A DNA stretch of 64,000 nucleotides, taken from NCBI GenBank assembly GCA_963836075.1, contig CAWIIB010000001.1:1280001-1344000 (forward strand). Direction: 5' to 3'. The notes beneath the pieces were generated by a model, which saw only the letters and a list, made by a program, of their open reading frames with translations, searched no databases and had not been told where the DNA came from. This document shows positions 3,968-41,634 of this stretch, one piece after another; position 1 is the first letter of the stretch; each line of letters starts with the position of its first letter. Source of the DNA: an uncultured Acidobacteriota bacterium (lineage in GTDB: Bacteria > Acidobacteriota > JAQAZP01). Both the position numbers and the translations under genes were made by a program.

Positions 3968-5116
3968 ATGGATTTTGAACTGACCAAGGCACAGAAGGAC
4001 ATCCAGAAGGCGGCCCGGGAGTTCGCCAAGGGCGAGTTCGACAAGGAGCTGGCCCTGGAAATGGACAACAACCACGAATACCCGAAAAAGATCTGGAAGA
4101 AGGCCTGCGGCGAAGGGTTCATCGGCCTGCACTTCCCGGAGAAGTACGAGGGTTCCGGCTACGGCTGCCTGGAGAACGTCCTGGTGGTGGAGGAGTTCTG
4201 CAAGGCCGACTCCTCCATCGGCGCCGCACTGATGCTCGCCGACTTCGCTTCGGAGAACATCCTCCGCTTCGGCACCGACGAGCAGAAGGAGAAGTGGCTC
4301 ACCCCGGTGGCCACCGGCGAAATGATCTCCGGCGGCGCGATCACCGAACCGGACCACGGCAGCGACATCACCCGCATGAACACCACGGCGGTGAAGGACG
4401 GTGACGAGTGGTTGATCAACGGCACCAAGACCTTCATCACCAACGCCGGCATCGCCGCCTACTACGTGACCATCTGCCAGACCGACCCCGAGGCGGGCCA
4501 CAAGGGCCAGTCGATGATCATCGTCCCCGGGGACGCCAAGGGCCTCGAGTCGGCCGACGTGGGCCACAAGATGGGCATCCGCATGATCCCCACCGGCGAG
4601 CTGTCGTACAAGGACGTGCGTGTGCCGCTGGACAACCTGGTGGGCAAGGAGGGCAAGGGCTTCTACCAGATCCTCGAGTTCTTCGACGAGAGCCGCATCG
4701 AAACCGCGGCCCAGGGCCTGGGCACCGCCCAGGGGGCCTTTGACCGGGCGCTGGCCTACGTCAAGGGCCGGGAGCAGTTCGGCAAGAAGATCGCCCAGTT
4801 CCAGGCCACCCAGCACAAGCTGGCCGACATGGCGACCAAGATCGAGCTGGCCCGCCTGATCACCTACAAGGCGGCCTGGAACTTCGACCAGGGACGCATC
4901 GACCCCAAGCTGACCTCGATGGCCAAGTGGTATGCCGCGCGCACCGCCTGCGAGGTGGCCGACGAGGCGATCCAGCTGCTGGGCGGCTACGGTTACGTGG
5001 CCGAGTTCGAGGTGGAACGCTACTACCGCGACGCCAAGATCTGCGAGATCTACGAGGGGACCCGCGAGATCCAGAAGAACACCATCGCCTCCTCGGTGAT
5101 CGGGAAACTGAAGTAG
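3968..5116 (+). CDS. Acyl-CoA dehydrogenase
   Basis: AITEPDHGSD, INGTKTFITN, REQFGKKIAQFQA, QLLGGYGY, YRDAKICEIYEGT; GGAGG RBS. Confidence 0.96.
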   Translation: MDFELTKAQKDIQKAAREFAKGEFDKELALEMDNNHEYPKKIWKKACGEGFIGLHFPEKYEGSGYGCLENVLVVEEFCKADSSIGAALMLADFASENILRFGTDEQKEKWLTPVATGEMISGGAITEPDHGSDITRMNTTAVKDGDEWLINGTKTFITNAGIAAYYVTICQTDPEAGHKGQSMIIVPGDAKGLESADVGHKMGIRMIPTGELSYKDVRVPLDNLVGKEGKGFYQILEFFDESRIETAAQGLGTAQGAFDRALAYVKGREQFGKKIAQFQATQHKLADMATKIELARLITYKAAWNFDQGRIDPKLTSMAKWYAARTACEVADEAIQLLGGYGYVAEFEVERYYRDAKICEIYEGTREIQKNTIASSVIGKLK

Positions 5117-5127
5117 ACAGGGTCATT

Positions 5128-5172
5128 CGCGGGTGGGTGAGCCGACGGGATGTTGCGGCGATCTCACCCGCG
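5128..5172. terminator. Stem-loop between convergent genes
   Basis: CGCGGGTGGG (5128-5137) pairs with CTCACCCGCG (5163-5172), just after the acyl-CoA dehydrogenase stop. Confidence 0.45.
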
Positions 5173-5325
5173 TTCGTTGTACACCTGGTGGACCATCCGG
5201 ATGAACCAGGGCGGCCGGGTGATGGCCACCACCAGCAGTACCGCCCCCAGGATGGGCAGCGGGATCACCAGGTCCACCAGAAAAACCACCGTCAGCCCAA
5301 CCAGTATTCGGCTGCGTGCTGTCAT
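5164..5325 (-). CDS. Small 53-aa membrane protein (not in ORF track)
   Basis: Manual translation MTARSRILVGLTVVFLVDLVIPLPILGAVLLVVAITRPPWFIRMVHQVYNERG*; hydrophobic hairpin; GC-rich third codon positions; AAGG upstream. Confidence 0.7.
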   Translation of the reverse strand: MTARSRILVGLTVVFLVDLVIPLPILGAVLLVVAITRPPWFIRMVHQVYNERG

Positions 5326-5541
5326 GGATTTGATACCTTATTAGAAATCAATCATTCTCACCAGGCCCGGCCAAGAGCATTGACTGTCCCCTGGGGCTGT
5401 GTAATACTCTGACCTGCCTTGTCTTGGAGCGGGTCGTGTTATCCCGTGCCCATGCCGTTTCCGGACCTCGATAACGGCTCTCGCGGATTTCCGCTTCCCC
5501 CTATTTGCCATACTTGTCATTGTCTCTGGAGGGAGTACTCT

Positions 5542-7455
5542 ATGTCCAAGACCCATTCGATTCTATCATTTGCTGCATTCGTCATGCTCGTCGCCCTGTT
5601 CGCTGCCACTCCCCTCTCCGCCGACACGGTGAGCGGGACGGTGGTCAACCAGTACGGGCCGGTGGAAGGGGCCCGGGTGCGGGTCCAGACTGCCACGGAT
5701 CCAAACTTCGTCCTCACCGATGCCAGCGGTAACTTCACCCTGGAGACTCCGGCGGGCGACGTAATCGTCACTGCCGGAAAATACCTCAACACCTGCGGCT
5801 ACGCGAACACCACCGGCGGCAGCAGCGGGGTGGAGATCGAGCTCACCTCTCTCACCTACCTCGATTACATGGCCTACGAATGGATCGACCCGCGTTCCGA
5901 CTCCGGCGACGCCTGGCGCTGCAGCCAGTGTCACACCAGGTTCTACGACCAGTGGGCAGTCTCGGTGATGGCCACCACGGTGGACAATGTCTACGTGCAA
6001 AGCTACTACAACGGCACTGACATCTTCGGCAACCCCGCCGGTTTCGGCTACCGGGTCGAGCACCCGGACGACTACGGCGACTGCGCCGGATGCCACGCGC
6101 CGGGCATGGCCAGCAAGAGCCTCGACCTGACCAGCGAGGACTGGAACCTGAACAACGCCACCGGCGACCTGATGGCCGGCATCCACTGTGACTGGTGCCA
6201 CAAGGTCTCCGATGTCAAACCAACCACGGAGCCCCCCTACGTCACGAAGAAATACGCGATGAAACGGCCGTTCAACGAGATCCCCAACGGCGGGGCGGGG
6301 CCGATGCTCGGGTCGCTGGACGACATCGTCTACGAGTGGATGGGGGCCACCTACTCGCCGCTCATGAAGGACAGCACCATCTGCGCTCTCTGCCACCTGG
6401 ACAACAGCCATGCCGGCGTGCCCAGCGAGGAGACCTTTGCCGAGTGGCAGAAGAGCAGTTACCCGGCGGCCGGTGAAGGCTGCCCCGAATGCCACATGGA
6501 GCCCTATGGCGACACCACCATCATCGACGGTGGCATCGACCGCGATCCGAACCAGGTGCACAACCACCACTTCTACGGCAAGACCGAGGCGGATCTGACC
6601 AACGCCGTAACCCTGACCATCGACGCGGTGCGCGAAGGCGGCCAGGTGACGGCCACGGTACACATCGAAAACACCGATACCGGCCACTCGGTGCCCACCG
6701 GCTTCCACACCCGCAACCTGATTCTGCTGGTGGAAGCAACCGACAGCAGCAGCGCACCGCTGACTCCGGTTCCCGCCTCCACCGAGTTTGTTCCCGACTG
6801 GGGCGGCATCGGCGATCCCGGCGACGGCAACTACGCCGGCCTGCCGGGCCGGGGGATCGCCAAGATTCTGGGTGACGATGACGGCAACGCGCCGGTGTTC
6901 TACACCGAAGCGACCCACGTGGTTTCCGACAACCGCATCGTTGCCGAAACCACCGATACATCGATCTACACCTTCGAGGACCCCGGTCCGTCCGCCGGTT
7001 CGATCACCGTGAACGCCAGGCTGCTCTACCGCCGGAGCTGGAAGGCGGACATGGACGTCAAGCAGTGGGGCATCCCCGACGTGTTGATGGAACAGGATTC
7101 GGTGGATCTCCCGTCCGACGCGTCGATCACCGTGGAAGCCGAGGTGGTGGGCCCGTCACAACTGGAACGGGGCGACACCCTCCTGTTCCGGGTCACGCTG
7201 ACCAACCTGACCACCAGCCCGGTCACCGCGGCCACCCGGTCCGAGGTCACCGTGCCGGGCGGGACCGTGATTACCCGCGGTCCGGCGAACATCGATCTGG
7301 GACCGCTGGAAATCCACTCCAAGGTCTACCACTGGCCGGTCCACAACCTGGCCCCCTTCGGCAGCTACCTGATGGACGTGATCAGCGAAGTTGGGGGCTC
7401 GGAAGCCGACCGGGACAGTCTGACCTTTGAAGTGGTTCCACCGCCGGAGCCATGA
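5542..7455 (+). CDS. Secreted multiheme (5 CxxCH) cytochrome c with N-terminal carboxypeptidase-regulatory-like and C-terminal Ig-like domains
   Basis: Signal peptide MSKTHSILSFAAFVMLVALFAATPLSA; CSQCH, CAGCH, CDWCH, CALCH, CPECH; GGAGGG RBS before ATG 5542. Confidence 0.88.
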   Translation: MSKTHSILSFAAFVMLVALFAATPLSADTVSGTVVNQYGPVEGARVRVQTATDPNFVLTDASGNFTLETPAGDVIVTAGKYLNTCGYANTTGGSSGVEIELTSLTYLDYMAYEWIDPRSDSGDAWRCSQCHTRFYDQWAVSVMATTVDNVYVQSYYNGTDIFGNPAGFGYRVEHPDDYGDCAGCHAPGMASKSLDLTSEDWNLNNATGDLMAGIHCDWCHKVSDVKPTTEPPYVTKKYAMKRPFNEIPNGGAGPMLGSLDDIVYEWMGATYSPLMKDSTICALCHLDNSHAGVPSEETFAEWQKSSYPAAGEGCPECHMEPYGDTTIIDGGIDRDPNQVHNHHFYGKTEADLTNAVTLTIDAVREGGQVTATVHIENTDTGHSVPTGFHTRNLILLVEATDSSSAPLTPVPASTEFVPDWGGIGDPGDGNYAGLPGRGIAKILGDDDGNAPVFYTEATHVVSDNRIVAETTDTSIYTFEDPGPSAGSITVNARLLYRRSWKADMDVKQWGIPDVLMEQDSVDLPSDASITVEAEVVGPSQLERGDTLLFRVTLTNLTTSPVTAATRSEVTVPGGTVITRGPANIDLGPLEIHSKVYHWPVHNLAPFGSYLMDVISEVGGSEADRDSLTFEVVPPPEP

Positions 7456-7477
7456 TCCGCGAACCCCACCGTACATG

Positions 7478-7510
7478 AGAAACGCCCCCCGTAACGGGGG
7501 GCGTTTCTTT
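7478..7510. terminator. Bidirectional intrinsic terminator
   Basis: AGAAACGCCCCCC-GTAAC-GGGGGGCGTTTCT followed by TT, between the convergent cytochrome and Rrf2 genes. Confidence 0.85.
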
Positions 7511-7529
7511 GGTTGCGGGGGACGGCCCC

Positions 7530-7988
7530 TCAGGCCTCCACCGGTTCCTTTTCCGCGCCGCCGGCCGCCTCGACCTTTTTGTGATGCATGGCCACGATAT
7601 CCTCGAGGGTGATACCGTCCATGAAGTCGGTCATCCGAATGGAGATGTCGCTCCAGATATCCTGGGTCACGCAGATCTCCGAACGGGCGCACTCCTCCGG
7701 CATCTCCTGGCAGTGCACCAGGGAGACCGGACCCTCCAGGGCGGTGAGCATCTGGTTGAGGGTGATTTCCGCCGGGTCCCGCGCCAGAACGTAGCCCCCG
7801 CGAGGGCCACGGTAGGCCTTGACCAGGCCGGCCACCCGGAGCAGGGTGAGCACGTGTTCCAGGTATTTCACCGGAATTTCCTGTGCCGCCGCCACCTGTT
7901 TGATCAGCACCGGCCCGCTCCCACGGCGCAGAGCCAGTTCCAGCATGCTGCGCGTTCCGTATCTTCCCTTGGTGGACAAACGAATCAT
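7530..7988 (-). CDS. Rrf2 family transcriptional regulator (IscR-like, three Cys)
   Basis: RLSTKGRYG, YLEHVL, RGPRGGYVLAR, LEGP; three C-terminal Cys (HCQEMPEECARSEIC). Confidence 0.92.
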   Translation of the reverse strand: MIRLSTKGRYGTRSMLELALRRGSGPVLIKQVAAAQEIPVKYLEHVLTLLRVAGLVKAYRGPRGGYVLARDPAEITLNQMLTALEGPVSLVHCQEMPEECARSEICVTQDIWSDISIRMTDFMDGITLEDIVAMHHKKVEAAGGAEKEPVEA

Positions 7989-8112
7989 TAGACTGTTTCA
8001 CCTGTAAATGAGGATGGATAAAACCGGCCCGGATCCCTGATCCGGCGCAACATCAGTAAACTCAGAGACAAATCTCAACAACGTCTACGTTTATTGTATC
8101 GCCTACGATGTA

Positions 8113-8140
8113 AGTATAGATGCGGAGATCACGTTGTCAA
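8113..8140 (-). promoter_or_regulatory. Sigma70-type promoter for the Rrf2 gene
   Basis: Minus strand TTGACA-16 nt-TATACT. Confidence 0.65.
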
Positions 8141-8167
8141 GGAGAGGCCGGAAAAAGTTGGTGTGAC

Positions 8168-8422
8168 TCACTTTTTCCGCTTTGAACCGCCGGTCTTGTG
8201 GCCGGGCATGGAAGAGAGCACCTGGTCGAAGAGCGAACTCTTTGAATCTTTCTTCCTCCGGGTGTCCCGGGCGTGACGGTAGGGGTGCTCGTTCTGGCAG
8301 GTGAGACAACGGGTCTTCTTGACCTCCTCGTCCACCATGGCCACCACGCCGTGGTTCAGGATCAACCTGCACCGGGGGCAGAAATCGTCAATCATGTCAC
8401 CGAGTGATATCTTGTTCTCCAT
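8168..8422 (-). CDS. Small zinc-ribbon protein
   Basis: CPRC...CLTC motifs, basic C-terminus, GAGGAGG RBS. Confidence 0.8.
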   Translation of the reverse strand: MENKISLGDMIDDFCPRCRLILNHGVVAMVDEEVKKTRCLTCQNEHPYRHARDTRRKKDSKSSLFDQVLSSMPGHKTGGSKRKK

Positions 8423-8499
8423 GAATCCTCCTCAAGGTCGACTGTGGCAACCATCACGGGAATTCTATGAGATCGGCCGGATGTTGACAACCTCGCGGA

Positions 8500-9837
8500 T
8501 CATCCCCGGCCCAGCAGTTTCCGCAGCAGCCCTTTGAATCGCTCCGCCAGGCCATGCACGGCCATCCCCCAGCGGGTCCCCGGGTTGCAGTAAAAAAGGG
8601 ACCGCAGTTCGTCCACGCTCTCCGGCAGCAGGTCCTGGTCGGCGGAGACCACACCCTCCTCAAGGGCTCGACCATAGAGCCCGGTATCCGGTTCCAGACG
8701 GATGTGGTTGATGAAAAAAGCCACCAACCGCCGGCCGAGAGTCAGCTTGGCCCGCAGGTAGAAAAAGAACAGACCGAAAATGTCCGTGGCCCTCTCCCCC
8801 GGCGGATTGGCGACAAAATTCCAGGAGACCCGCATCTGCCGGTTCTTTTTCGCCAGGCGATAGCTGTTGCGGATATCCTCCGGACGGATGTTTTTCTTCA
8901 GCAGCTCCAGCGACCGGCGGCCGTAGCCGTCGGGCGAGAAGACGAACTCGGCGCATCCCGCCTCCAGTGACAGGTCCACCATATCCTGGTCCAGCTGCCG
9001 CTCGTTGAACCAGCCAATCCACTTCACCGGCAATTTCGCCCCGATCAGCGCCCGACAGAAATTCACCGCACTCTCCCGGGGCACATTGAAGATCGGATCG
9101 GTGAGGTGGAACAGTGACACTCCATGCTCGCGGTGGAACCAGGCCATCTCCTGCACCACCACTTCCGGCGGCCGGCAGCGGACGCGGCGGCCGCCAAGGA
9201 AGGGGTAGGAACAGTAGTCGCACTTCAGGGTGCAGCCCCTCTTGTATTCGATGCCAAAAGCTCCGTAGTCACCATAGGGGCCCATATGGAGGGGAGCCAT
9301 GGTCCGTGGCGGGATGGCCGAGAGATCCATGGGCGACCGTGGGCCGCCGAAGTGAACCACGCCGTCCCTGTCCCGGTGGTATAGCCCGGCAACCCCCTCC
9401 GGGTCGCCGGAGCGGTCCAGCAGCTCGCAAAGGGTCTCCTCTCCCTCGAGAAAAACACCGTAACGCAGTTCGGGGTTGCGCTCCATGATCGCCGCAGCGT
9501 GCATGGAAAACCCCGCCCCACCGATGGCCACCACCGACTGCGGGGATTGGCGGGCAATGGTCTGCAGCAGCGGCGGCAGGAAGGCGTAGTGGTAGTGCAG
9601 GTCCAGACGGTTGGTGGTGTCGACGTTGCGCAGTGAAAGACAGACCAGGTCGGGCCGGCGCTCCAGGGCGGTGGCGAGAGCGGCACCGGGATCGGGAGCC
9701 GCATTCTGATCCAGCAGGCTGAGCTCCAGCCCCGGCCGTTTCCAGGCGAGGTAGCAATAGAGCGCGTGAAGGCCGATGGGAAAGATGACCTTCTCGCGAC
9801 GGCCAAGGAAAGGCTGGAGAAAGAGGATGCTGTTCAC
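8500..9837 (-). CDS. B12-binding radical SAM protein (resembles lipid-biosynthesis B12/radical SAM family)
   Basis: N-terminal cobalamin-binding domain (PIGL..., PDLVCLSLRNVD, IGGAGFS, LEGEETL) and RGCTLKCDYC; GTG start at 9837 is inferred. Confidence 0.85.
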   Translation of the reverse strand: MNSILFLQPFLGRREKVIFPIGLHALYCYLAWKRPGLELSLLDQNAAPDPGAALATALERRPDLVCLSLRNVDTTNRLDLHYHYAFLPPLLQTIARQSPQSVVAIGGAGFSMHAAAIMERNPELRYGVFLEGEETLCELLDRSGDPEGVAGLYHRDRDGVVHFGGPRSPMDLSAIPPRTMAPLHMGPYGDYGAFGIEYKRGCTLKCDYCSYPFLGGRRVRCRPPEVVVQEMAWFHREHGVSLFHLTDPIFNVPRESAVNFCRALIGAKLPVKWIGWFNERQLDQDMVDLSLEAGCAEFVFSPDGYGRRSLELLKKNIRPEDIRNSYRLAKKNRQMRVSWNFVANPPGERATDIFGLFFFYLRAKLTLGRRLVAFFINHIRLEPDTGLYGRALEEGVVSADQDLLPESVDELRSLFYCNPGTRWGMAVHGLAERFKGLLRKLLGRG

Positions 9838-9853
9838 GAATCGAACACCCGGG

Positions 9854-11269
9854 TCAGCCGGTGGAATCGTCGGGGTTGGTGCTGGGGCCGGAGCGCTGCT
9901 CCTCGGCCCAGACACGATCGGCCAGCTCACCGAATTCCCGTGAGTAGCGATCCAGATCACCGGCGATATCACCGAGCAGCAGGTCTGATGTCCCGTCGGA
10001 GGAGCGGGCCTCGGTGCAGGACACGCACTCCCGGAGCACTTCGGGTCGGTCGATTATCTGGCAGGGCCGCATCAGGTTCTTGTCGAATGGCTGGTTGGAC
10101 CGGATCCGCTGCAGATAGGGCGACTTCAGGGCATCCACGAATGAGTGGTCGTGAATGTTGGTATCCGAGAAATGGACAAAGGCGCACGGTTCCACGTCAC
10201 CGCGGTGATTGATGTGGAGATACTTCCTGCCGGCGGAGATACAGCCGCCGGTGAGATGGCCGTCGTTCCAGAAGTCAATGACGCCCATGGGCCTGGTGCT
10301 GCGGATCCGCTTGATGCCCTCGCGCAGCATGAGCCGCTGCTCGGGCAGGCACATCAGGTTCACATCGGGATCGCGGCCCACCGGAACGTAGCTGAAATAC
10401 CAGCCCAGCAGGCAACCCTTATCCTCGTAATAGTCGACAAAATCGTCGCTGGAAACCAGCTCGGCGTTCTGTCGGGTGGCGGTCACCGAAAAACCGAAGA
10501 GCGATTTTGCCTCTTTGAGGATCGCCATGGCGCGGCGGATGGTGGCAAAGTGCCCCTGGCCGCGGCGGAAGTCGGTCTCGCGCTCCAGGCCCTCGACACT
10601 GATGAACGGAACCACGTTTCCCAGCGTGAGAATACGGTCGCAGGTGGCCTCGTCCAGCAGGGTGCCGTTGGTGAACACCCCGAACATGCAGTCATGGTGC
10701 TCTTCGAAAAGATCGAAGAGGTCTTTCCTGAGGAACGGTTCCCCACCAGAGATGAACATCAGGTGGGTTCCCACCGCCTTGACTTCACCCACCACCCGGC
10801 TGAGCAGATCCAGGTCCAACCGTTCGCGTTTTTGATACGTGGCGGCGTAACACCCGGTGCACTTGAGGTTGCAGTCCATCAGCGGGCTGATCAGCACGGC
10901 GCTGGGCGGGTAGACATGGTGATCCTCAAGACACTGCTGCCGCTTCTCGGTACCGAACACCAGGTGGTTGAGCACCAGGTTTTCCATCAGTTTCCGACGG
11001 TAGACCGGGTCGAGGTCGCGGACGATGCGCATGATCCAGGCCAGGCTCGGATGGCCGGCCTCGAACTTGAGCCGCATCTCCCGGATCGCCTTGCGGTAGT
11101 ATTCTTTCCCCGCCACCCGCTCCAGAACGCTGGTCATGCGGATGATGGAGGAATCCGAGGCGTGGGCCAGAAGGGAGCCCAGGGTCAGGATCGTCTTTCG
11201 TTTTCCGAGGTCCTTGAGCTGCTTGAACCGAGCGGGGGCGCTTTGGGGCGCTGCCATGGCACTCACCAC
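9854..11269 (-). CDS. Radical SAM protein with C-terminal SPASM/twitch region
   Basis: CNLKCTGC, ISGGEP, FTNGTL, C-terminal GCISAGRKYLHINHRGDVEPCAFVH...RPCQIID. Confidence 0.9.
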   Translation of the reverse strand: MVSAMAAPQSAPARFKQLKDLGKRKTILTLGSLLAHASDSSIIRMTSVLERVAGKEYYRKAIREMRLKFEAGHPSLAWIMRIVRDLDPVYRRKLMENLVLNHLVFGTEKRQQCLEDHHVYPPSAVLISPLMDCNLKCTGCYAATYQKRERLDLDLLSRVVGEVKAVGTHLMFISGGEPFLRKDLFDLFEEHHDCMFGVFTNGTLLDEATCDRILTLGNVVPFISVEGLERETDFRRGQGHFATIRRAMAILKEAKSLFGFSVTATRQNAELVSSDDFVDYYEDKGCLLGWYFSYVPVGRDPDVNLMCLPEQRLMLREGIKRIRSTRPMGVIDFWNDGHLTGGCISAGRKYLHINHRGDVEPCAFVHFSDTNIHDHSFVDALKSPYLQRIRSNQPFDKNLMRPCQIIDRPEVLRECVSCTEARSSDGTSDLLLGDIAGDLDRYSREFGELADRVWAEEQRSGPSTNPDDSTG

Positions 11270-11377
11270 TTTCCTGATTGCCGCATCATCCGCCTTGGAA
11301 CAACCCTGCCCGCAAGCACCCGCCCGTCTTGAGGAGGTCGAGACCCGAAAAAATCTCTAACCGGGCCTGATGTGAAG

Positions 11378-11407
11378 AAGATAGCAGAATCACCCGAACC
11401 AAGTCAA
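11378..11407 (-). promoter_or_regulatory. Putative sigma70 promoter for the radical SAM pair
   Basis: Minus strand TTGACT-18 nt-TATCTT with extended TG. Confidence 0.45.
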
Positions 11408-11408
11408 C

Positions 11409-11432
11409 GAATCGGGGAAGCGGCCCCGATTC
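11409..11432 (-). terminator. Hairpin downstream of the NifU-domain gene
   Basis: GAATCGGGG-AAGCGG-CCCCGATTC inverted repeat. Confidence 0.55.
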
Positions 11433-11463
11433 CTCCCCGGCCGGGTGGGAAACGCTGGAGGAT

Positions 11464-11685
11464 TCAGGCCTGCTCCACGACGATTCCCGGGTCCACTTTT
11501 TCCCGCAGCATCCGTTCAATACCGTTCTTCAGGGTCATCTGGGCGCCGGGACAGCCGGCACAGGCCCCCTGGAGCCGCAGTTTGACCACTCCCGAATCTT
11601 CCACTTCCACCAGCTCAACGTCGCCGCCGTCGGCCTGCAGCATGGGCCGGATCTCTTCGATAACCTTTGCTACTTTTTCCTGCAT
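11464..11685 (-). CDS. NifU C-terminal (Nfu) domain Fe-S cluster carrier protein
   Basis: IRPMLQADGGDVELV...LQGACAGCPGAQMTLKNGIE signature. Confidence 0.93.
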   Translation of the reverse strand: MQEKVAKVIEEIRPMLQADGGDVELVEVEDSGVVKLRLQGACAGCPGAQMTLKNGIERMLREKVDPGIVVEQA

Positions 11686-11906
11686 GGTCGATCTCCCACT
11701 GGTCGATGTAAACAACATAAAAAGACCGGACCCCCAAGGGTCCGGAACGGATCAGAATCTACCACAGCAACCCGGCTGAGTCAAAGCAATGACAACCGCA
11801 GCACAACCGAAACCGCGCGGTTTTGACTCGCTCTCGAGCCCTGTGCTACCATCCGCATTCTTGTCATCTAGCGGGACATCGTGCCCTGCCGGAGGGGAGA
11901 ACGGTA

Positions 11907-12704
11907 ATGGCGGAAACCATACAGCTGGAAATCGCCGGTATCTGCGTGGAATACCGGCTGGGCAGCGAAAAACTGGCCAGGGATATCCGGCACGAGATGG
12001 GCGAATTCCTCTCCGGGGAGCCGGCGGAGCTGTCCCTCGACCTGTCCCTGCTCCAGGAACACCGCTCCCCCGGTTGGCTGCCGCTCTCCCTCACCGAGGA
12101 GGGCAACGAGTTCCGCGTGGACCGACATGACATGAGCTGCCGTATCGACCTCTCCAGCGGGAGTGGATGCGGAGAGATGGCCGAAAACACGTTTGCTTTC
12201 GGCACCTTTCTCCGCGGCCTCTACTCGCGCCTGCTCCTCGACCGCCAGGGAATCATCCTCCACGCCAGCGCCGTGATCAGGAACGGCCAAGCCTACGCCT
12301 TCACCGGCCCCAGCGGCTCGGGGAAAACCACAATTGCCCTGCTGGCCGAGGAGAATCGGCTGATCACCGACGAGCTGCTGATCCTGCGCCGTTCCGCCGG
12401 GGGGGACGTGCAGGTCTGCGGCACACCCTTCATCGGCGACTCGGTGCAGACCGGTCTGAATATCCGGCAGCCGCTGCGGCGGCTGTTCTACCTCCACCAG
12501 GCCCTGGGGAACCGGATCGAACCGATGAAATTGAAGAACGCCATCACCCTGGCCATGGGGCAGGTGATGTTCTTCGACCGGTCGCCGCGGCAGATGACCC
12601 GCCTGCTGGACCTGCTGGGCCAGCTGCTGGCCGATCTCGAACCCTGCGAACTGCACTTCCTGCCTGAGCCCACGGTGTGGGATCTCATTGACCGTCTGGG
12701 ATGA
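11907..12704 (+). CDS. HprK-related P-loop kinase
   Basis: LHASAV...AFTGPSGSGKTT...ITDELL...GTPF; GGAG RBS before ATG 11907; TTGACT-18-TACCAT upstream. Confidence 0.75.
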   Translation: MAETIQLEIAGICVEYRLGSEKLARDIRHEMGEFLSGEPAELSLDLSLLQEHRSPGWLPLSLTEEGNEFRVDRHDMSCRIDLSSGSGCGEMAENTFAFGTFLRGLYSRLLLDRQGIILHASAVIRNGQAYAFTGPSGSGKTTIALLAEENRLITDELLILRRSAGGDVQVCGTPFIGDSVQTGLNIRQPLRRLFYLHQALGNRIEPMKLKNAITLAMGQVMFFDRSPRQMTRLLDLLGQLLADLEPCELHFLPEPTVWDLIDRLG

Positions 12705-14044
12705 GGGGGACCGGCGTGATGGCCCAGGACGTATTCAACCTTGCCCGTACCCGGATGGTGGAGCTGTGCGGAATCCGCCTGCCCCAGGGCCTGGGGGAAA
12801 ACCTGGTGCGGGAGACGCAGACCGGAGCGCTCAACTGGAACCTGGTGATGGCGCTGGCCTCCCGTAACCGGACCGTTTCATTTCTCCACGCAGCGATAAA
12901 AAAGCTGGGTGTGGCCGACCGGCTGCCCCGGCCGCTGACCGAGCATCTCCGGCAGGAATACCTTCACAACTACCAGCGCAACCTCGCCTTCGAGAGCGAG
13001 GTCAAGCAGCTGCTGGAGAGCTTCAGGGCGGCGGACCTGCCGCTGATCGTGCTCCGCGGGGTGATGATGTCGGAAAAGGTGTTCGGCAATCCGGCGCTGC
13101 GCACCAGCAACGACATCGACATCCTGATCCGCCGCCGGGACCTGCCCCGGATCAAGGAAACAGTGCACCCGCTCGGTTTTGTCCAGGACCCGCGGTCCCT
13201 GGACGACGAGTTCTACGAACGGCACCACCTGCACCTGCCGTATCTCAAAAGGGAGCGCCTGGTGCTGCTGGAAATCCACTGGAGCTACGACCACAAATAC
13301 ACGCCATTCAACATCGACACCGCGGCCACCTTCCACAGTGCACGCACCATCGACTACCAGGGCATGGAAGCGCTGGAGCTGGGCCCGGAAGACCTGCTGG
13401 TGATGCTCTGCCTGCACGCCTTCAAGCACTCCTGCTCGATCAAGTACACCCATGGCCGGCCCGAGGCCGAAGAGATGGTGCTCTCCGACGGCGCATTGAT
13501 GCAGTTCCTCGACCTGCAGTACGGTATCGAGTATGCCAGGCCGGACATCGACTGGGAGTTGATGCGCGCCCGGGTGGCCGACTGGAACCTGCAGGTCCCG
13601 GTGCTTGCCGCGCTGCGGGTGATGGAGTCGTTCTTCCGCCACGACCCGCAGAGCCGCGTGCCGGAACTGCCCGGCGACCCCCCGGTGGGCCGCCTCGAGC
13701 GCGCCTGCTTCTCCGCCCTCTCCGGGATGATGCTCCCGACACGACAACAGCAGCAGAACCAGGGCGGGCTTTACCGCCGCTTCGACAAAATCACCAAGGT
13801 CTTCTTCTTCAACACCGTGCGGCTCTTCGACATCGTGTCATACATCATCCCCTCGCCAGGATTCCTCCGGGGCCGCTATCCCCGGTGGCCGAAAACGCTG
13901 CTGCCCCTGCTCTACCCCTGGCACCTGCTGGTCTTTGCCGGCCAGGCCGCGCTGAACCTGCTGGACATGGTCCGCTTCGCTGTCCGCAAAAAGCTTCGTG
14001 GGCCGGTGGAATCACCCTTTGGACCGCCGGCGACCAAGGGTTGA
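12701..14044 (+). CDS. Nucleotidyltransferase family protein (NTP_transf_5-like)
   Basis: LIVLRG...RTSNDIDILI, LEIHW, LCLHAFKH; ATGA overlap with the kinase stop. Confidence 0.8.
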   Translation: MRGTGVMAQDVFNLARTRMVELCGIRLPQGLGENLVRETQTGALNWNLVMALASRNRTVSFLHAAIKKLGVADRLPRPLTEHLRQEYLHNYQRNLAFESEVKQLLESFRAADLPLIVLRGVMMSEKVFGNPALRTSNDIDILIRRRDLPRIKETVHPLGFVQDPRSLDDEFYERHHLHLPYLKRERLVLLEIHWSYDHKYTPFNIDTAATFHSARTIDYQGMEALELGPEDLLVMLCLHAFKHSCSIKYTHGRPEAEEMVLSDGALMQFLDLQYGIEYARPDIDWELMRARVADWNLQVPVLAALRVMESFFRHDPQSRVPELPGDPPVGRLERACFSALSGMMLPTRQQQQNQGGLYRRFDKITKVFFFNTVRLFDIVSYIIPSPGFLRGRYPRWPKTLLPLLYPWHLLVFAGQAALNLLDMVRFAVRKKLRGPVESPFGPPATKG

Positions 14045-14069
14045 CAGGGCCCGAAGGTTGACCTATTCT
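14041..14069 (+). promoter_or_regulatory. Sigma70-type promoter for tnaA
   Basis: TTGACA-17 nt-TATTCT. Confidence 0.6.
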
Positions 14070-14120
14070 GGCCACGGAACTATTTCACTCTTCACGAGTT
14101 ACCCCTGATTGAGAGGCGAC

Positions 14121-15494
14121 ATGCGAACCATATTCGAGCCCTACCGCGTCAAGATGGTGGAACCGATCCGGATGACCACCCGTGCCGAACGGGAAGAGAT
14201 CATCCGCACGGCCGGCTACAACCTCTTCCTGGTCAAGTCCGAGGACGTGATCTTCGACTTTCTCACCGACTCGGGAACCGGCGCGATGAGCGCGGCACAG
14301 TGGGCCGCACTGATGCTCGGTGACGAGAGCTATGCCGGCTCCCCCAGCTTCTACCGTTTTGAAGAGAAGGTCCGCCAGTTGACCGGGTATGAGCACGTAA
14401 TCCCCACCCACCAGGGCCGGGCGGCGGAGACGATCCTTTTCGCCGTCACCGGCGGCAAGGGCAAGGCGGTGCCGAACAACAACCACTTCGACACCACCCG
14501 GGCCAACATCGAGTACACCGGCGCCGACGCCGTGGACCTGGTGATCGCCGAGGGGAAGGACCCCCAGTTGGACTACCCGTTCAAGGGGAACATCGACCAC
14601 GACGCGCTGGAGAGCTTCATCGCTTCCCGGGGTACGGAAAACATCCCCCTGGGGATGACCACGGTGACCAACAACTCCGGTGGCGGCCAGCCGGTCTCCA
14701 TGGCCAACATCCGGCGGACCTCGGAGATCCTCAAATCCCACGGGATCCCCTTCTTCCTCGACGCCTGCCGCTTTGCCGAAAACTCTTACTTCATCAAGCT
14801 TCGCGAGCCGGGCTATGCGGACAAGAATGTACGTGACATCGCCCGGGAGATGTTCGACCTGGCCGACGGCTGCACCATGAGCGCCAAGAAGGACGGCCTG
14901 GTGAACATCGGCGGCTTCCTGGCCCTGCGTGACGGGGACCTGGCCGCCAAGTGCCGCGACCTGCTGATCCTCCACGAGGGTTTCCCCACTTACGGCGGCC
15001 TGGCCGGCCGCGACCTGGAGGCCATCGCCCAGGGGCTGGAGGAGGTGCTGGACGAGAACTACCTGCAGTACCGGCTGGCGGTGACCCGCTACCTCACCGA
15101 GGGGCTGAACTCACGCGGATTCCCCACCCTGCAGCCCCCGGGCGGCCATGCGGTCTATCTCGACGCCGCCGGTTTCCTGCCCCACATCCCGCCGGAGCAG
15201 TTCCCGGGCCAGGCCCTGTCGGTGGAGCTCTATCTGGCGGGCGGTATCCGCTCGGTGGAGATCGGCAGCGTGATGTTCGGCAAGCGGGACAAGCAGACCG
15301 GCGGGTTCATCCCGGCCAGCATGGAGCTGGTGCGCATGGCCATGCCGCGGCGGGTCTACACCCAGAGCCACGCCGACTGCGTGCTGGAATCGGTGGAAGC
15401 GATCGTGGAGAACAAGTCGAAGATGCGGGGGATGAAGATCGTCTACGAACCGGACTTCCTGCGGCATTTTACCGCGCGTTTCGAGTGGGTGTAG
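14121..15494 (+). CDS. tnaA: Tryptophanase
   Basis: EPYRVKMVEPI, DFLTDSGTGAMS, PTHQGRAAE, MSAKKD (PLP lysine), YGGLAGRD; C-terminal LRHFTARF has the His of tryptophanase rather than the Phe of tyrosine phenol-lyase. Confidence 0.92.
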   Translation: MRTIFEPYRVKMVEPIRMTTRAEREEIIRTAGYNLFLVKSEDVIFDFLTDSGTGAMSAAQWAALMLGDESYAGSPSFYRFEEKVRQLTGYEHVIPTHQGRAAETILFAVTGGKGKAVPNNNHFDTTRANIEYTGADAVDLVIAEGKDPQLDYPFKGNIDHDALESFIASRGTENIPLGMTTVTNNSGGGQPVSMANIRRTSEILKSHGIPFFLDACRFAENSYFIKLREPGYADKNVRDIAREMFDLADGCTMSAKKDGLVNIGGFLALRDGDLAAKCRDLLILHEGFPTYGGLAGRDLEAIAQGLEEVLDENYLQYRLAVTRYLTEGLNSRGFPTLQPPGGHAVYLDAAGFLPHIPPEQFPGQALSVELYLAGGIRSVEIGSVMFGKRDKQTGGFIPASMELVRMAMPRRVYTQSHADCVLESVEAIVENKSKMRGMKIVYEPDFLRHFTARFEWV

Positions 15495-19876: not shown

Positions 19877-21388
<1,512 letters not shown>

Positions 21389-33903: not shown

Positions 33904-35322
33904 CTATTTGCCGGTGAGGAACCGCTTCAGCTTGTAGGTGTAGAGCACCAGGGGGAAGATCAGGTCGTAGAGCGATTTGGTGAGCGTGCCGGGTATGGGA
34001 ATGCGCGAGAGGGTGCGCACCACGAAGGCCCAGCGGGGGTAGGAGACCTCCCAGGGGAAGACGTTGTGGTAGTACGCCACTTTTCGCGGCGTGATGGAGG
34101 GCTGGTCGAGCATGGTGACATTCTGGAAGAAGGAGTGGATCTGGCGGTTCGAGATCCAGCCCTTTTCCTTGCACTCGCGGTAGAGGGCAGTGCCCTTGTA
34201 CGGCCGGAACACCGATACAAAGGGGGTCTCCGGGCGGACCTCCCGGTTCAGGGCGATGGTCCGGCGGATATTTTCCTCGGTCTCTCCGGGCAGGCCCACC
34301 ATGTTGAAGGTCCAGAGGCTTATGCCGGCTTCGTGCACCAGCGTGCAGACCTGGCGGATGGTGTCGTTGGAGATCTTCTTCCCCACCACCTTGCTCCGCA
34401 GTTCCTCGTCGCCGCTCTCGATCCCCAGGCGGAACTGGAAGCAGTTGGCCTCCTTCATCCAGCGGATCACGTTTTCATCAAGCTGGTCAAAGCGGGTGGA
34501 GCAGGCAAAGGGCCGGTCCACCCGCCGGGCGTATTCCTCGCAAAAGGACCTGATCCATTTGCGATTGTGGGTGAAGGTCTCGTCCTCGAAAACCACTTGG
34601 CGCACACCCTTGTAGCGGTCCAGGACCTCCACCACCTCGTCCACCACGTGTGACGGGCTCCGCTGGCGGACATAACGGCCGCAACCCTGGTAGATCTTGC
34701 GCAGGGCGTGATTGGCGCAGTAGGGGCAGAGGAAGGGGCAGCCCCGCCCGGTGGAGAAGGAGGCCTTGCCGGTGCGCGAGACGATCTGCTGGTACTCAAA
34801 GAGCTCGCGGTCCGGGAATCCCAGCCAGTCCAGGTCCTCCACCAGGGGCCCCAGCTCGTTCTTCACCACTTCGCCCTCATGGCTGAACCAGAAGTTGAGG
34901 ATCTCCCACGGCTCCCCCCCCCCTTCCAGGGAACTGGCCAGGGCCGTCAGGGCCAGGTCACCCTCGCCGACGCAGATGCCCAGCAGCCCGGGAAGGGCCA
35001 CGGCCTCCTCCGGGGCCATGGTGGCGTGAAGGCCGCCCAGCACCACCAGGGGCCGGGGCTCTTTCATCCCGCCGATCTGCCGCACCACCCTCGACGCCAG
35101 CGGGAACTGGTCACTGGTGGCGGAGACGGCCACCAGGTTGGGGCGGAAGAGTTTCAGCGCCCGCTTGATCACGCCGGGCTGGTAGCTGTTGATATTGAGC
35201 AGCGCGGTCTGGTGGCCGTCGCGGACCAGCATCGACGACAGGTAGCCGATGCCGTAGTTGTAAGCGCGGGCGGCCACCACGGTGTGTGCCGGCGGGAAGG
35301 GATAGATGAAGAGTATTTTCAC
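33904..35322 (-). CDS. B12-binding radical SAM protein
   Basis: GIGYLSS, GGLHAT, GEGD, RGCPFLCPYC, FEDETF, GIESG, MVGLPGET. Confidence 0.92.
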   Translation of the reverse strand: MKILFIYPFPPAHTVVAARAYNYGIGYLSSMLVRDGHQTALLNINSYQPGVIKRALKLFRPNLVAVSATSDQFPLASRVVRQIGGMKEPRPLVVLGGLHATMAPEEAVALPGLLGICVGEGDLALTALASSLEGGGEPWEILNFWFSHEGEVVKNELGPLVEDLDWLGFPDRELFEYQQIVSRTGKASFSTGRGCPFLCPYCANHALRKIYQGCGRYVRQRSPSHVVDEVVEVLDRYKGVRQVVFEDETFTHNRKWIRSFCEEYARRVDRPFACSTRFDQLDENVIRWMKEANCFQFRLGIESGDEELRSKVVGKKISNDTIRQVCTLVHEAGISLWTFNMVGLPGETEENIRRTIALNREVRPETPFVSVFRPYKGTALYRECKEKGWISNRQIHSFFQNVTMLDQPSITPRKVAYYHNVFPWEVSYPRWAFVVRTLSRIPIPGTLTKSLYDLIFPLVLYTYKLKRFLTGK

Positions 35323-36218
35323 CGGCCACCCCCTTCATCCTTCCCCGCCGCCAGGTCCCGGTAGGTCACGATGCTGATGCCCAGCGATTCCACGAATCGG
35401 CGGGCCTCCCCGGAGCAGAGCAGGGCCAGTTCGGTGGCCCAGTGAAAATCCCAGGGACTGCCATAGCCGGCCTCTCGCAACTGGGTGCGCAGATTCGTCC
35501 GCGACCCCTCACCGGGATGGCACATCAGTTCGGCGGTGACCGCCGGACCGTCGGAGAAGGCCTTGACCAGCCGGCGGAATGCCTCGAGGGTCAGCCGGCC
35601 GCTGCAGCCGGTGCCCAGTAACGCGTCGGGCCTGGCGAAAAAATCTCCATAGACCCTGGCGCTGCGCCGCGCGCCCAGGCGGAGCAGCCGGCCCTTCCAG
35701 CCGCTGCCGCCGCCGTCGCCGGGTCCGTTTAACCGGGGCAGCCGAACCGCCGGAATGCCGTATTCCCGCGCCAGACCGGCGAACACCGGAGCCAGCGGGG
35801 GAAAGAGGTGCAGGTGCTGGTGCCCGTCCATGTGATCGGGCCGGATGCCGGTGCCGAGGATCCGCTCCAGCTGGGCCCGCAGTTCGGTGGTCACCCGTTG
35901 CAGGTTGACCCGCCGCAGGACAAAAAAGTCGCCAATGAAATGGCGGTAGTCCGCCGGCAACAGGTTCTCCGGCCCCCGGCCCAGGCCGCCGTCCTCCCAG
36001 GCGGTGAGCGCCCGGCCCTCGGCCAGGGCCAGGTGCGCCCCCACCCCGATGTCGGGACGGGACCGGCACAGCGCGACGCCGCTGTCAAAAGCGGGACCGT
36101 TGGCCAGCAGCGAGAGGCTGCTCACGATCCCCTCGCCCGCGGCCCGGGCCAACCCGCGGTCGATCCCGGGCAACAGCCCCAGGTCGTCGCCGTTGATCAC
36201 CAGCCGCTTGACCGTCAT
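35319..36218 (-). CDS. ChbG/HpnK (YdjC) family carbohydrate deacetylase
   Basis: INGDDLG, GVGAHL, DHMDGHQHLH, ELMCHPG. Confidence 0.92.
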   Translation of the reverse strand: MTVKRLVINGDDLGLLPGIDRGLARAAGEGIVSSLSLLANGPAFDSGVALCRSRPDIGVGAHLALAEGRALTAWEDGGLGRGPENLLPADYRHFIGDFFVLRRVNLQRVTTELRAQLERILGTGIRPDHMDGHQHLHLFPPLAPVFAGLAREYGIPAVRLPRLNGPGDGGGSGWKGRLLRLGARRSARVYGDFFARPDALLGTGCSGRLTLEAFRRLVKAFSDGPAVTAELMCHPGEGSRTNLRTQLREAGYGSPWDFHWATELALLCSGEARRFVESLGISIVTYRDLAAGKDEGGGR

Positions 36219-37000
36219 CGCCCTTCCCCCACCGGGGCCGGCCCTGACGGCCTCTGCCCGCCGCGGGTCATCAGGTAGGCCGTCAGTTCCAACAGAATCT
36301 TGACGATCACCGCCGGGGAGGCCAGGGTGGAAACCCCGGCGGTGCGCGGGAAGTATCGCACCCCCACCTCCTCGATGGCAAAACCGGCTTTCCGCGCTTC
36401 GATCAGTACTTCGGCATCGATGAAGGAGCCGTTGGAACGGAGCTCGATGCGCTCCAGCACCTGCCGCCGGAAGAGCTTGAAGGAGAAATTGATGTCGCGG
36501 AAACGGAACCCGAAGAGAAAATTGATCAGCCAGTTGTAAGTCCGGGAGTAGACCGTGCGCAGCAGCGTCTCGTCGCGGTTCAGCCGGTAGCCGGTGACCA
36601 CGTCCACGCCGCCGGCGGCCACCAGCGAAAAGGCGGCGGTCATGTCGGCGAAATCGATGGGGTTGTCCGCGTCGGTGTAAAAGACCAGCTCCATCCGGCT
36701 GGCCGCAAACCCGGCCTTGAGCGCTCCCCCCAGCTTGAGGTTGCGCGGCAGGTGGATCACCCGGACGTGCGGGTCAGCGGCGGCCAGGCGGTCGGCAATC
36801 ACGGCCGTCCCGTCGGTTGAGGCATCGTTGACCACGATCACCTCGTGCTCGACGCCGACGGCGTCCAGCGCGGCGCGGGCACCGCGTACCGACCGCTCGA
36901 TATTCCCCTCCTCGTTGTAGGTGGGGAAGAACACGGAAACCGATTGCGCGGCTCCATCGCCGGCGGCCAGGGCCCGCGCTTTTTCAGACAACTGGATCAT
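36215..37000 (-). CDS. GT2 polyprenyl-phosphate glycosyltransferase (Dpm1/ArnC-like)
   Basis: FFPTYNEE, VVNDASTDGT, YTDAD, GYR, FKLFRR, DAEVL. Confidence 0.92.
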   Translation of the reverse strand: MIQLSEKARALAAGDGAAQSVSVFFPTYNEEGNIERSVRGARAALDAVGVEHEVIVVNDASTDGTAVIADRLAAADPHVRVIHLPRNLKLGGALKAGFAASRMELVFYTDADNPIDFADMTAAFSLVAAGGVDVVTGYRLNRDETLLRTVYSRTYNWLINFLFGFRFRDINFSFKLFRRQVLERIELRSNGSFIDAEVLIEARKAGFAIEEVGVRYFPRTAGVSTLASPAVIVKILLELTAYLMTRGGQRPSGPAPVGEGR

Positions 37001-39878: not shown

Positions 39879-39897
39879 CGGTCTGCCTCCCCGGGAA

Positions 39898-40662
39898 TCA
39901 TCGGAGCTCTTTCCAGAGGCGACGGATCTCGCCGAGGATCTCGGTGACCACCGACGGCCGGACAAAACCGAAGTTCTGCCAGCGGCCGATGTTGTACGAA
40001 GTGGCTCCGTGTGTCCGAGGGTAGTGCTGCACTCCCACCTCGCAGAAACGGCGGCCATCCTTTATCGCCTTGATCAGGATTTCGGCGTCGGCCAGTCCGC
40101 TGGTGGCGCTGATGGTCATGTCCTGGAAGATTTCCCGCCGGAAGACCTTGAACGAGCAGTCCACGTCCCGGACCCGCAGGCCGAAGAGAAAGCGGATCAT
40201 CAGGTTGTAGACCCAGGCGGTGAAGATGCGCATCTTCGGGTCCTGGCGGTCGATCCGGTAGCCCACCACCATGTCCCAGCCCTCGTCGAGACGCTCCAGC
40301 AGGGTGGTGATTTCCCGCATGTCGAACTGGTTGTCGGAGTCGGTGTAGAAGATCAGATCCCTGGTGGAGTTTTCGATCCCCGAACGGAGGGCCGCGCCAA
40401 AACCGCGGTTTTCCGCGTGGCGCACCACCTTGACCCGGGGATCGCGCCGGGCCAGTTCGTCGGACAGCTTCGAGGTTCCGTCACGGCTGCCGTCATCGAC
40501 GATGATGATTTCAAAGTCACGGCAGAACGTCCCCAGCACCTCGGTGGCCTGATTCACCGCCCGCTCGATGTTGTCTTCCTCGTTGTAGGTGGGGAAGAAC
40601 ACCGACACGCTCTGATCGAAGCCTTGCATCACGTTTCCGCTCTCCGTTTCCTCCGGGATCAT
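39898..40662 (-). CDS. GT2 polyprenyl-phosphate glycosyltransferase
   Basis: FFPTYNEE, IVDDGSRDGT, NRGFGAA, YTDSDNQFD, DVDCSFK; paralog of 36215-37000. Confidence 0.92.
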   Translation of the reverse strand: MIPEETESGNVMQGFDQSVSVFFPTYNEEDNIERAVNQATEVLGTFCRDFEIIIVDDGSRDGTSKLSDELARRDPRVKVVRHAENRGFGAALRSGIENSTRDLIFYTDSDNQFDMREITTLLERLDEGWDMVVGYRIDRQDPKMRIFTAWVYNLMIRFLFGLRVRDVDCSFKVFRREIFQDMTISATSGLADAEILIKAIKDGRRFCEVGVQHYPRTHGATSYNIGRWQNFGFVRPSVVTEILGEIRRLWKELR

Positions 40663-41594: not shown

Positions 41595-41634
41595 CCGGTC
41601 AACCTTTCATCAAAAACCGGCACGGTTCAAGGGA

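Follow-up and report, generated by a model that had tools for sequence, protein, structure and literature searches.

How bacteria couple the hydrocarbon tails of their membrane lipids, and how the coupled chains are then tailored, is the question raised by a locus in an uncultured Acidobacteriota bacterium. The stretch that we analyzed, called the window throughout (64,000 nucleotides; contig CAWIIB010000001.1, positions 1,280,001 to 1,344,000), carries on its minus strand two adjacent genes for radical S-adenosylmethionine (SAM) enzymes, the first of them similar to Mss, a synthase of lipids that span the membrane, and the second encoding a B12-binding protein. Branched tetraether lipids serve widely as proxies of temperature and pH. 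As far as the literature is accessible, Mss and Ger are the only confirmed bacterial enzymes in this field, and none is named there for the extra chain methylations or rings. From sequence and by analogy, the best reading of the pair is a lipid tail-coupling enzyme of the Mss type and a cobalamin radical SAM tail modifier that would form one transcription unit, a reading to which we give about as much credence as doubt.

The two radical SAM enzymes

On the minus strand, the radical SAM/twitch gene (9854-11257 or 9854-11269, depending on the start codon) is followed by the B12-binding radical SAM gene (8500-9837). This is in full agreement with the first-pass annotation, which had described a radical SAM/SPASM gene followed after about 16 nt by one for a B12-binding radical SAM protein: the open reading frames (ORFs), the quoted motifs and the 16-nt spacer were all recovered. 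A consensus scan found no promoter or terminator match in the spacer. Hundreds of homologues were found for both genes, which are therefore not chance ORFs. For the first gene, ATG 11257 (467 aa) is a likelier start codon than GTG 11269, because this ATG and its AGGAAA Shine-Dalgarno sequence are conserved and because the 94% identical homologue P0001 is 467 aa long. A dedicated promoter had also been postulated. We found a promoter-like TTGACT-18-TATCTT site ahead of the pair, and in a three-sequence alignment this block (11407-11378) was the same in L081 and L082, two loci of close relatives, while its flanks diverge; at the level of sequence, a dedicated promoter is therefore supported.

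The first protein holds the motifs CNLKCTGC, IDFWNDGHLTGGCISAGRKYLHINHRGDVEPCAFVHF and RPCQIID. Pfam recognized a Radical_SAM (63.5 bits) and a SPASM domain (27.2 bits), both above their cut-offs, as well as Fer4_12. In the predicted model, an N-terminal helical domain (residues 1 to about 117), for which no family match was found, precedes the radical SAM core. The cluster triad consists of C133, C137 and C140, and GGEP lies at positions 175 to 178. In addition, an alignment with 13 homologues revealed four further invariant cysteines (286, 343, 362 and 403). Since there are four such residues outside the triad, C286, C343, C362 and C403 probably hold one auxiliary cluster, as in a twitch domain, rather than those of a full SPASM domain.

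We then compared this protein with Mss, for which the supplement of the Mss paper (PMC13159169) defines six conserved blocks. Among the blocks compared, the first protein matches four (I, II, V and VI), and the residues concerned are invariant or nearly so among 14 family members. Block I (CNxxCxGC) corresponds to CNLKCTGC at positions 133 to 140, with C133, C137, G139 and C140 invariant and N134 conserved in at least 90% of the members, and block II (GGE) to G175, G176, E177, P178 and F179, all of them invariant. Block V, published as an Asp beside a Phe, a Tyr/His/Asn group amid glycines and VEPC, is recognized as the pattern DFWND..YLHIN..VEPC, in which D332, F333, W334, N335, D336, Y350, H352, N354, V359, E360, P361 and C362 are invariant or at least 90% conserved. 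Block VI, made of three prolines and a cysteine, is represented by P394, P402, C403 and P409; the Val and Ala of the supplement were not located.

The family to which this protein belongs is very large, with members of about 465 aa. Among the candidates that were scored, one search returned 1039 matches, those listed being mostly about 46% identical; another, seeded with a Clostridia homologue, returned 5631, again among scored candidates. A scan of species genomes gave 540 relatives, the best 80 of which come from Thermodesulfobacteriota/Geobacteraceae, Syntrophaceae, Atribacterota, Armatimonadota, Omnitrophota, TA06 and Clostridia; none of these 80 is from Thermotoga, Thermoanaerobacter or another species named in the Mss paper. 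This phylum range agrees with the range of Mss homologues given in the Mss paper and in a Black Sea study, and Mss homologues have been published for many phyla, metagenome-assembled genomes (MAGs) of Acidobacteria (11 of 97) included. The first protein is 44% identical to a homologue from a Clostridia MAG (E 3e-145) and 41% identical to one from its own phylum (E 1e-98), which is followed by an overlapping CDP-alcohol phosphatidyltransferase gene. For comparison, the match between the two confirmed Mss enzymes has an E value of 1e-89 (Table S20, PMC13159169), and the homology criterion of the same authors is E <= 1e-50 and at least 30% identity to WP_129545148.1 or WP_004080829.1 (PMC13159169). 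In the window's own genome, the Mss family is represented by a single gene (774 bits; the second match scores 70).

The second protein contains the sequence CLSLRNVDTT and a CxxxCxxC motif at C202, C206 and C209. Its B12-binding (PF02310, 36.4 bits) and Radical_SAM (PF04055, 37.8 bits) domains exceed their Pfam cut-offs of 32.1 and 29.5 bits, respectively. Its AlphaFold model is excellent, with a predicted local distance difference test (pLDDT) score of 94.9 and a predicted TM-score (pTM) of 0.92, and the fold that this model matched best was that of TsrM (query TM-score 0.75-0.78, E 6e-24); AprD4, MgmA, OxsB, CysS and TokK were matched as well, and four of the six are methylases. Judged by domains, CxxxCxxC motif and predicted fold, it is a genuine cobalamin-dependent (class B) radical SAM enzyme. 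Unlike the family of its partner, that of the second protein is small: a word-indexed search gave 67 matches, and an exhaustive search gave 210 cluster representatives out of 1.84 billion at E<=1e-30, the protein's own representative being 75% identical and the next best 44%. The protein is 31% identical (E 6e-48) to a Geobacter member of TIGR04072, the family named 'lipid biosynthesis B12-binding/radical SAM protein'.

Gene contexts of the relatives

We analyzed the neighborhoods of the best 80 of the 540 genome relatives of the first protein. ORFs were called at 76 of these Mss-like loci, four giving no clean call; neighbors within four genes were clustered, and the cluster representatives were named by Pfam. 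A family 2 glycosyltransferase (GT2) was found at position -1 in 47 of the 76 loci and a polysaccharide deacetylase (DUF3473) at position -2 in 39. Further recurrent neighbors were an LpxL-type Lip_A_acyltrans protein (29/76), an acyl carrier protein (ACP; 21/76) and a FabD-like acyltransferase (11/76), together with the domain types of PlsA/Ger, namely DUF2229/HGD-D in 14 loci, DUF2229 in 10 and BcrAD_BadFG in 12. A B12-radical SAM gene lay within four genes in 46 to 47 of the 76 loci. In seven loci of the Geobacterales type this gene followed the Mss-like gene directly on the same strand, with gaps of 6 to 48 nt in six of them; the B12 enzymes concerned are 23 to 25% identical to that of the window and have BchE, ApyD and HpnR as top matches.

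Two gene orders illustrate these contexts. In Geobacter hydrogenophilus, the succession is deacetylase, GT2, Mss-like, LpxL-like, B12-radical SAM (DUF4070), FabD-like, 4HBT thioesterase, B12-radical SAM and FabG, and the second of the two B12 enzymes passes the TIGR04072 cut-off (L024:11083-12486, 390.6 > 360 bits). In a Thermodesulfobacteriota MAG, it is ATP-grasp, GT2, Mss-like, three PlsA/Ger-like pieces, B12-radical SAM, LpxL-like and ACP. In Atribacterota, Omnitrophota and a Clostridia MAG, the Mss-like gene stands amid unrelated genes.

Two side observations concern these loci. In L024 (Geobacter hydrogenophilus DSM 13691, 4502-13306) and in L005, the Mss-like gene is located inside an orphan TIGR04072 lipid cluster, a type of cluster which in Geobacteraceae and Thermodesulfobacteriota combines deacetylase, GT2, LpxL-like, ACP, FabD-like, thioesterase and FabG genes with two B12-radical SAM genes. 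No paper linking Mss-like genes to the TIGR04072 cluster was found in the literature searched, with subscription journals outside its scope. Split PlsA/Ger-like genes occur in L005 as well as in 9 to 13 other Mss-like loci.

Genome co-occurrence of a Ger/PlsA-type ether-forming enzyme with Mss has been used as support in earlier studies (PMC13274423, PMC11868695). On contig C9 of the window's genome (L162:6185-10714, plus strand) we found a 1509-aa protein that resembles PlsA/Ger, with two BcrAD_BadFG ATPase domains and a DUF2229 domain; no HGD-D domain was detected in it at E<=1e-5. Its gene is far from the pair and adjoins urocanase and peptidase genes.

Relatives of the B12 enzyme were collected by a metagenome scan with an eight-sequence alignment, which gave 80 loci, with the ORF called at 73. 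A second B12-radical SAM paralogue was present in 41 of these 73 loci, an LpxL-type acyltransferase in 36, a GT9 heptosyltransferase in 10 and, in 15, a protein of about 343 aa, a size like that of the radical SAM/SPASM proteins of L084 and L102; Wzy_C ligases also occur. The nearest relatives (33 to 44% identical) form a group of their own that is sited in LpxL-type clusters. Separately, we noticed B12-radical SAM genes in tandem, two to four of them, at the metagenome loci L084, L098, L102 and L109, together with LpxL-type acyltransferases, GT9, Wzy_C, a methyltransferase and a radical SAM/SPASM protein of small size. These clusters look like a system for acyl tailoring of lipopolysaccharide or glycolipid, for which there is no named family.

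Such contexts also fit an alternative in which the pair modifies acyl chains and makes no membrane-spanning lipids, that is, branches, cross-links or cyclizes the chains of lipid A-like or other envelope glycolipids or ACP-bound chains. This is what the LpxL-type acyltransferases, heptosyltransferases and ligases beside the B12 relatives would suggest, as would the deacetylase, GT2, LpxL-type and ACP genes of the Mss-like loci; no such cluster has so far been tied to diabolic acids, and the first protein is a long-branch member of its family (see below). On the other hand, its motif blocks agree with the Mss description, PlsA/Ger-like genes follow the Mss-like gene in 10 to 14 loci, and the published range of Mss homologues covers the same phyla. 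We regard this alternative as possible, if rather unlikely.

We prefer a tail-coupling enzyme with a cobalamin-dependent tail modifier because both families recur with acyl-lipid genes and with each other's enzyme class, and because the first protein has the published Mss signature. Gene structure, domain and fold classes, agreement in motifs and the relatives' lipid gene contexts are results of the analysis; for substrate, coupling chemistry, methylation and regulation, we infer the following scheme. The pair would be one transcription unit, and its products two radical SAM enzymes, both sensitive to oxygen, with the hydrocarbon tails of membrane lipids as their targets. The first would bind a [4Fe-4S] cluster at C133/C137/C140 and SAM at GGEP and, by analogy with Mss, would abstract hydrogen from the ends of two acyl chains, which would thereby be joined into a membrane-spanning diacid. 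The second would carry out a cobalamin-dependent change at the same kind of unactivated chain carbon. In archaea, the B12-radical SAM enzymes of lipid tails comprise ring synthases and a desaturase as well; C-methylation is therefore the most likely but not the sole option, with cyclization or desaturation less likely. A neighboring NifU-like protein may supply Fe-S clusters, and an Rrf2-like neighbor may tie expression to Fe-S or anoxic status. The product would then be a methylated or cyclized membrane-spanning lipid.

Counterevidence and rival functions

Several findings weigh against a lipid-coupling enzyme with a dedicated tail modifier. In a tree built quickly from 73 members of the family, the first protein and its 94% relative in locus L001 stand alone on a long branch (1.55), and neither exceeds about 50% identity to any of the others. 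Together, the long branch and the low identity indicate that the function may have shifted and thus argue against a simple transfer from Mss. Moreover, membership of the Mss clade was inferred from the published motif description and not from the sequences of WP_129545148.1 or TM0824. No membrane helix is predicted in either protein of the pair, and no fatty-acid or glycerolipid synthesis gene was found beside it in the Pfam-scanned parts of the window's neighborhood.

The distribution of the pair weighs on both sides. In its favor, the two genes and six tested neighbors are retained at L001, L081 and L082 as well as in all three genomes of the window's genus. Against it, among the 80 metagenome loci of the B12 enzyme, an Mss-like gene adjoins it in only two (85% and 75% identical), with the six tested neighbors included, and the other 78 (33 to 44% identical) have no adjoining Mss-like gene. 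Conversely, this B12 enzyme is present in 1 of the 80 Mss-like genome loci (L001, 94%); all three paired loci belong to close relatives. At E<=1e-40, the B12 enzyme was found in 4 of 401 genomes of a phylum sample, three from its own genus and one a 32% match, and the Mss-like protein in 38, three from its own genus, others from a second genus (46 to 50%) and the rest at 29 to 41%. Synteny, which the first-pass annotation had named as a check, is thus kept within one genus and, with this B12 subfamily, was not found beyond it in the loci and genomes scanned. The exact pair with this subfamily is confined to the window's own genus, and proximity of Mss-like and B12-radical SAM genes recurs more widely.

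Comparison with solved structures was also less favorable. The top sequence match of the first protein is the peptide maturase SkfB (34.7 bits for the sequence alone and 66.4 bits for a profile), and GDGT-MAS reached only 26.4 bits with the profile (E 2e-5), over positions 117 to 245 of the radical SAM core. The Mss-like character suggested in the first-pass annotation is partly supported, by the four motif blocks, the phylum range and the acyl-lipid clusters of the relatives; full-length similarity to Tes (MJ0619, PDB 7TOL) was not found, the single sequence giving no match at E<=0.01. The AlphaFold model of the first protein is middling (pLDDT 69), and its C-terminal domain is poor, with pLDDT below 50 for residues 361 to 407. 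Foldseek placed SkfB, SuiB, CteB and anSME on top and 7TOL 49th, and VIA-align gave Z-scores of 22.2 for SkfB, about 21 for viperins and 19.3 for GDGT-MAS (root mean square deviation 3.2 over 246 residues). We rejected structure as a discriminator: since SkfB, SuiB and viperins score at or above GDGT-MAS, the fold has no power to separate lipid from peptide enzymes. An ESM Atlas search with both proteins returned generic radical SAM clusters only.

That the best solved relatives are SkfB, SuiB, CteB and anSME would suit a pair that matures a ribosomal peptide or protein, with a cross-link made by the twitch/SPASM enzyme, a C-methylation by the B12 enzyme and tailoring by an HprK-like kinase and a nucleotidyltransferase. 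Two divergent genes of these types, ScmC/HprK-related (11823-12704) and NTP_transf_5 (12701-14044), indeed travel with the pair in L001, L081 and L082, and both are gene types that we take to belong to cassettes for peptides that are made on the ribosome and modified after translation. These two genes are, however, absent from the other 79 Mss-like loci. Nor did Pfam detect a PqqD/RRE domain, and no precursor candidate was present among ORFs of at least 80 aa, short ORFs not having been systematically searched. Maturase models remained far under their cut-offs (StsB 69.8 vs 625 bits; ScmE 40.9 vs 400 bits), and the recurrent neighbors in the 76 loci are lipid genes, not those of peptides, proteases or exporters. 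We consider peptide maturation very improbable.

Curated family models raise another possibility, in which an AhbD/NirJ-like enzyme and a BzaD-like methylase would share a precursor of tetrapyrroles or cobamides as their substrate. With the first protein, none of the curated NCBIfam models exceeded its cut-off, the best being NirJ2 (85.2 vs 500 bits), followed by AhbD (76.2 bits). The second protein is below the cut-offs of all 17 NCBIfam families listed, and its best score is with the benzimidazole methylase BzaD (TIGR04385, 218.4 vs 450 bits). The first-pass annotation had proposed a lipid-biosynthesis enzyme of the B12-radical SAM class. The class is right, and TIGR04072 is the second-best curated family; yet its score of 158.2 bits is below the cut-off of 360 as well as below that of BzaD, and HpnR (TIGR04367, hopanoid C-3 methylase) gives just 24.8 bits against 650. 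Of the curated families, BzaD and TIGR04072 thus come closest to the second protein, and it stays below both cut-offs. The relatives at 33 to 44% identity score 275 to 302 bits with BzaD and 205 to 262 bits with TIGR04072. The NifU-like and Rrf2-like proteins are neighbors of a cofactor type, which would favor such a function. Against it, all scores are far below the 450- to 500-bit cut-offs, the Pfam-scanned parts of the window hold no bza, cob, ahb or nir genes, and the gene contexts of both families are lipid-related. A cofactor pathway therefore appears extremely unlikely.

Returning to an Mss-type enzyme with a tail modifier, the B12-radical SAM partner might even be the missing tailoring enzyme of bacterial membrane-spanning lipids, a methylase or ring-former acting on the diacid of the Mss-like enzyme; this we put forward as a tentative and rather unlikely proposal. 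If it were true, an anaerobic sediment bacterium would gain the additional methyl branches or rings by which the branched glycerol dialkyl glycerol tetraether (brGDGT) series of palaeothermometry is defined, and the two-gene operon could reveal such a step of tailoring in anaerobes. That Mss-like genes are paired repeatedly, but independently, with different B12 subfamilies would then represent a general, undescribed module that couples and then tailors, in parallel to archaeal Gms-Gmm. No description of an operon of Mss and a B12-radical SAM enzyme, or of a bacterial brGDGT methylase, was found in the literature searched, from which subscription journals and the Mss paper's Zenodo files were absent. 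The location of Mss-like genes in ACP/acyltransferase/B12-radical SAM clusters also offers a lead on the role of the orphan TIGR04072-type lipid clusters. Should the first enzyme not be an Mss, the pair would still be an uncharacterized lipid- or peptide-modifying duo.

Surrounding features and comparison with known systems

The coordinates of the locus are given in Table 1. The same-strand run comprises, in order, the NifU-like, Mss-like, B12-radical SAM, 84-aa four-cysteine and Rrf2/IscR-like genes, with promoter-like sites ahead of the pair, of the small gene and of the regulator.

Table 1. Features of the radical SAM locus, in window coordinates
Feature	Position	Strand	Remarks
NTP_transf_5 nucleotidyltransferase gene, divergent	12701-14044	+	164.6 bits; 4-nt overlap with HprK-related gene
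HprK-related/ScmC-like P-loop gene, divergent from NifU-Mss run	11823-12704	+	26-27 bits
NifU-like Fe-S scaffold domain protein, directly upstream of Mss-like gene	11464-11718	-	Pfam NifU 100.7 bits; retained in L001, L081 and L082
Promoter-like site	11378-11407	-	TTGACT-18 nt-TATCTT, TG before -10; consensus scan; identical in L081 and L082
Conserved leader, about 120 nt	11258-11377	-	Two predicted hairpins, AGGAAA Shine-Dalgarno, ATG 11257; three-sequence alignment, RNAalifold
Mss-like radical SAM/twitch gene	9854-11269	-	471 aa from GTG 11269; 467 aa from ATG 11257
Intergenic spacer of the pair	9838-9853	-	16 nt
B12-binding radical SAM gene	8500-9837	-	445 aa from GTG, nested in longer ORF 8500-9972
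84-aa four-Cys zinc-ribbon-like protein, basic tail	8168-8422	-	Own promoter-like site 8490-8462
Rrf2/IscR-like regulator, end of same-strand run	7530-7988	-	Pfam Rrf2 129.8 bits; NCBIfam IscR 118.5 vs cut-off 207.55

The folding of the leader was predicted from three sequences, too few to judge covariation. An upstream riboswitch was considered and rejected, as no Rfam match was found in region 7000-14500 at E<=1. The 84-aa protein has no Pfam or NCBIfam family match; copies at 81 to 91% identity are present in L001, L081 and L082, and only in close relatives does it accompany the pair. The promoter-like site ahead of the Rrf2/IscR-like gene (8140-8113) agrees with the consensus at 11 of 12 positions, and the product of this gene is a possible Fe-S or redox-responsive regulator. 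The only terminator-like hairpin of the run (7500-7485) lies after it. All three close relatives (L001, L081 and L082) retain the divergent HprK-like and NTP_transf_5 genes. The G+C content at third codon positions is 0.71 to 0.81 in the block, not far below the 0.84 to 0.94 of its neighbors; other parts of the window are equally low, and composition is not decisive as a sign of horizontal transfer of the block.

Three further observations concern the rest of the window. Adjacent to the block, in relatives as well, is a plus-strand gene (5419-7455) for a multihaem c-type cytochrome of 678 aa, which begins with a CarboxypepD_reg-like domain and matches ExtKL weakly (47.5 vs 250 bits). A second cluster of the envelope type (33904-43131, minus strand) holds two B12-radical SAM genes (33904-35322 and 37000-38478), whose best matches are HpnJ/BchE at 142 to 173 bits, under the cut-offs, along with a YdjC-like gene, a GT2, two PMT_2 glycosyltransferases and a SAM methyltransferase. 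Finally, a plus-strand glutamate/leucine dehydrogenase (19910-21388) is broken into two ORFs of 378 and 108 aa with 15 nt between them, leaving positions 83 to 149 of the ELFV_dehydrog profile uncovered, which could be due to a frameshift or an assembly error.

How does the pair compare with characterized systems? Mss is the membrane-spanning lipid synthase of T. ethanolicus (WP_129545148.1, 446 aa) and T. maritima (Tmari_0825/TM0824, 482 aa) (Sahonero-Canavesi et al. 2022, PMC13159169). The first protein resembles it in length (467-471 aa), in being a radical SAM enzyme with a twitch/SPASM tail, in four published blocks and in the phylum range of its family, and its genome is likewise rich in anaerobe-type radical SAM enzymes. 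It differs from Mss in its position on a long branch of its own family, and the comparison was one by motif description, not residue by residue. The gene orders differ too: in the window the Mss-like gene is followed by a B12-radical SAM gene, whereas the neighbor of T. maritima mss encodes a 316-aa radical SAM protein of a non-B12 type that gave no diacids (PMC13159169). With Tes/GDGT-MAS (PDB 7TOL/7TOM), the first protein shares the radical SAM core and, by analogy, the same proposed tail-to-tail Csp3-Csp3 coupling; in contrast, only the core aligns by sequence, and the structural score is no higher than with viperins or SkfB.

The second point of comparison, a close precedent in function, is archaeal. 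There, gms, which encodes a radical SAM/twitch synthase of glycerol monoalkyl glycerol tetraethers (GMGTs), often clusters with gmm, encoding a B12-radical SAM GMGT methylase, and the two genes overlap in T. guaymasensis (PMC11214058). Gms, with which the window pair was compared by description, carries a COG4001 domain and acts on an isoprenoid GDGT (PMC11214058). In the first protein, Pfam, a library to which COG models do not belong, found Radical_SAM, SPASM and Fer4_12 and no extra domain. The bacterial homologues of Gms number about 200 (17% of 1,149; PMC11214058), compared with thousands in the family of the first protein. Nevertheless, the arrangement is alike in both cases: a twitch-type radical SAM gene stands beside a B12-radical SAM gene, and in the archaeal pair Gms forms the C-C bond and Gmm methylates the tail.

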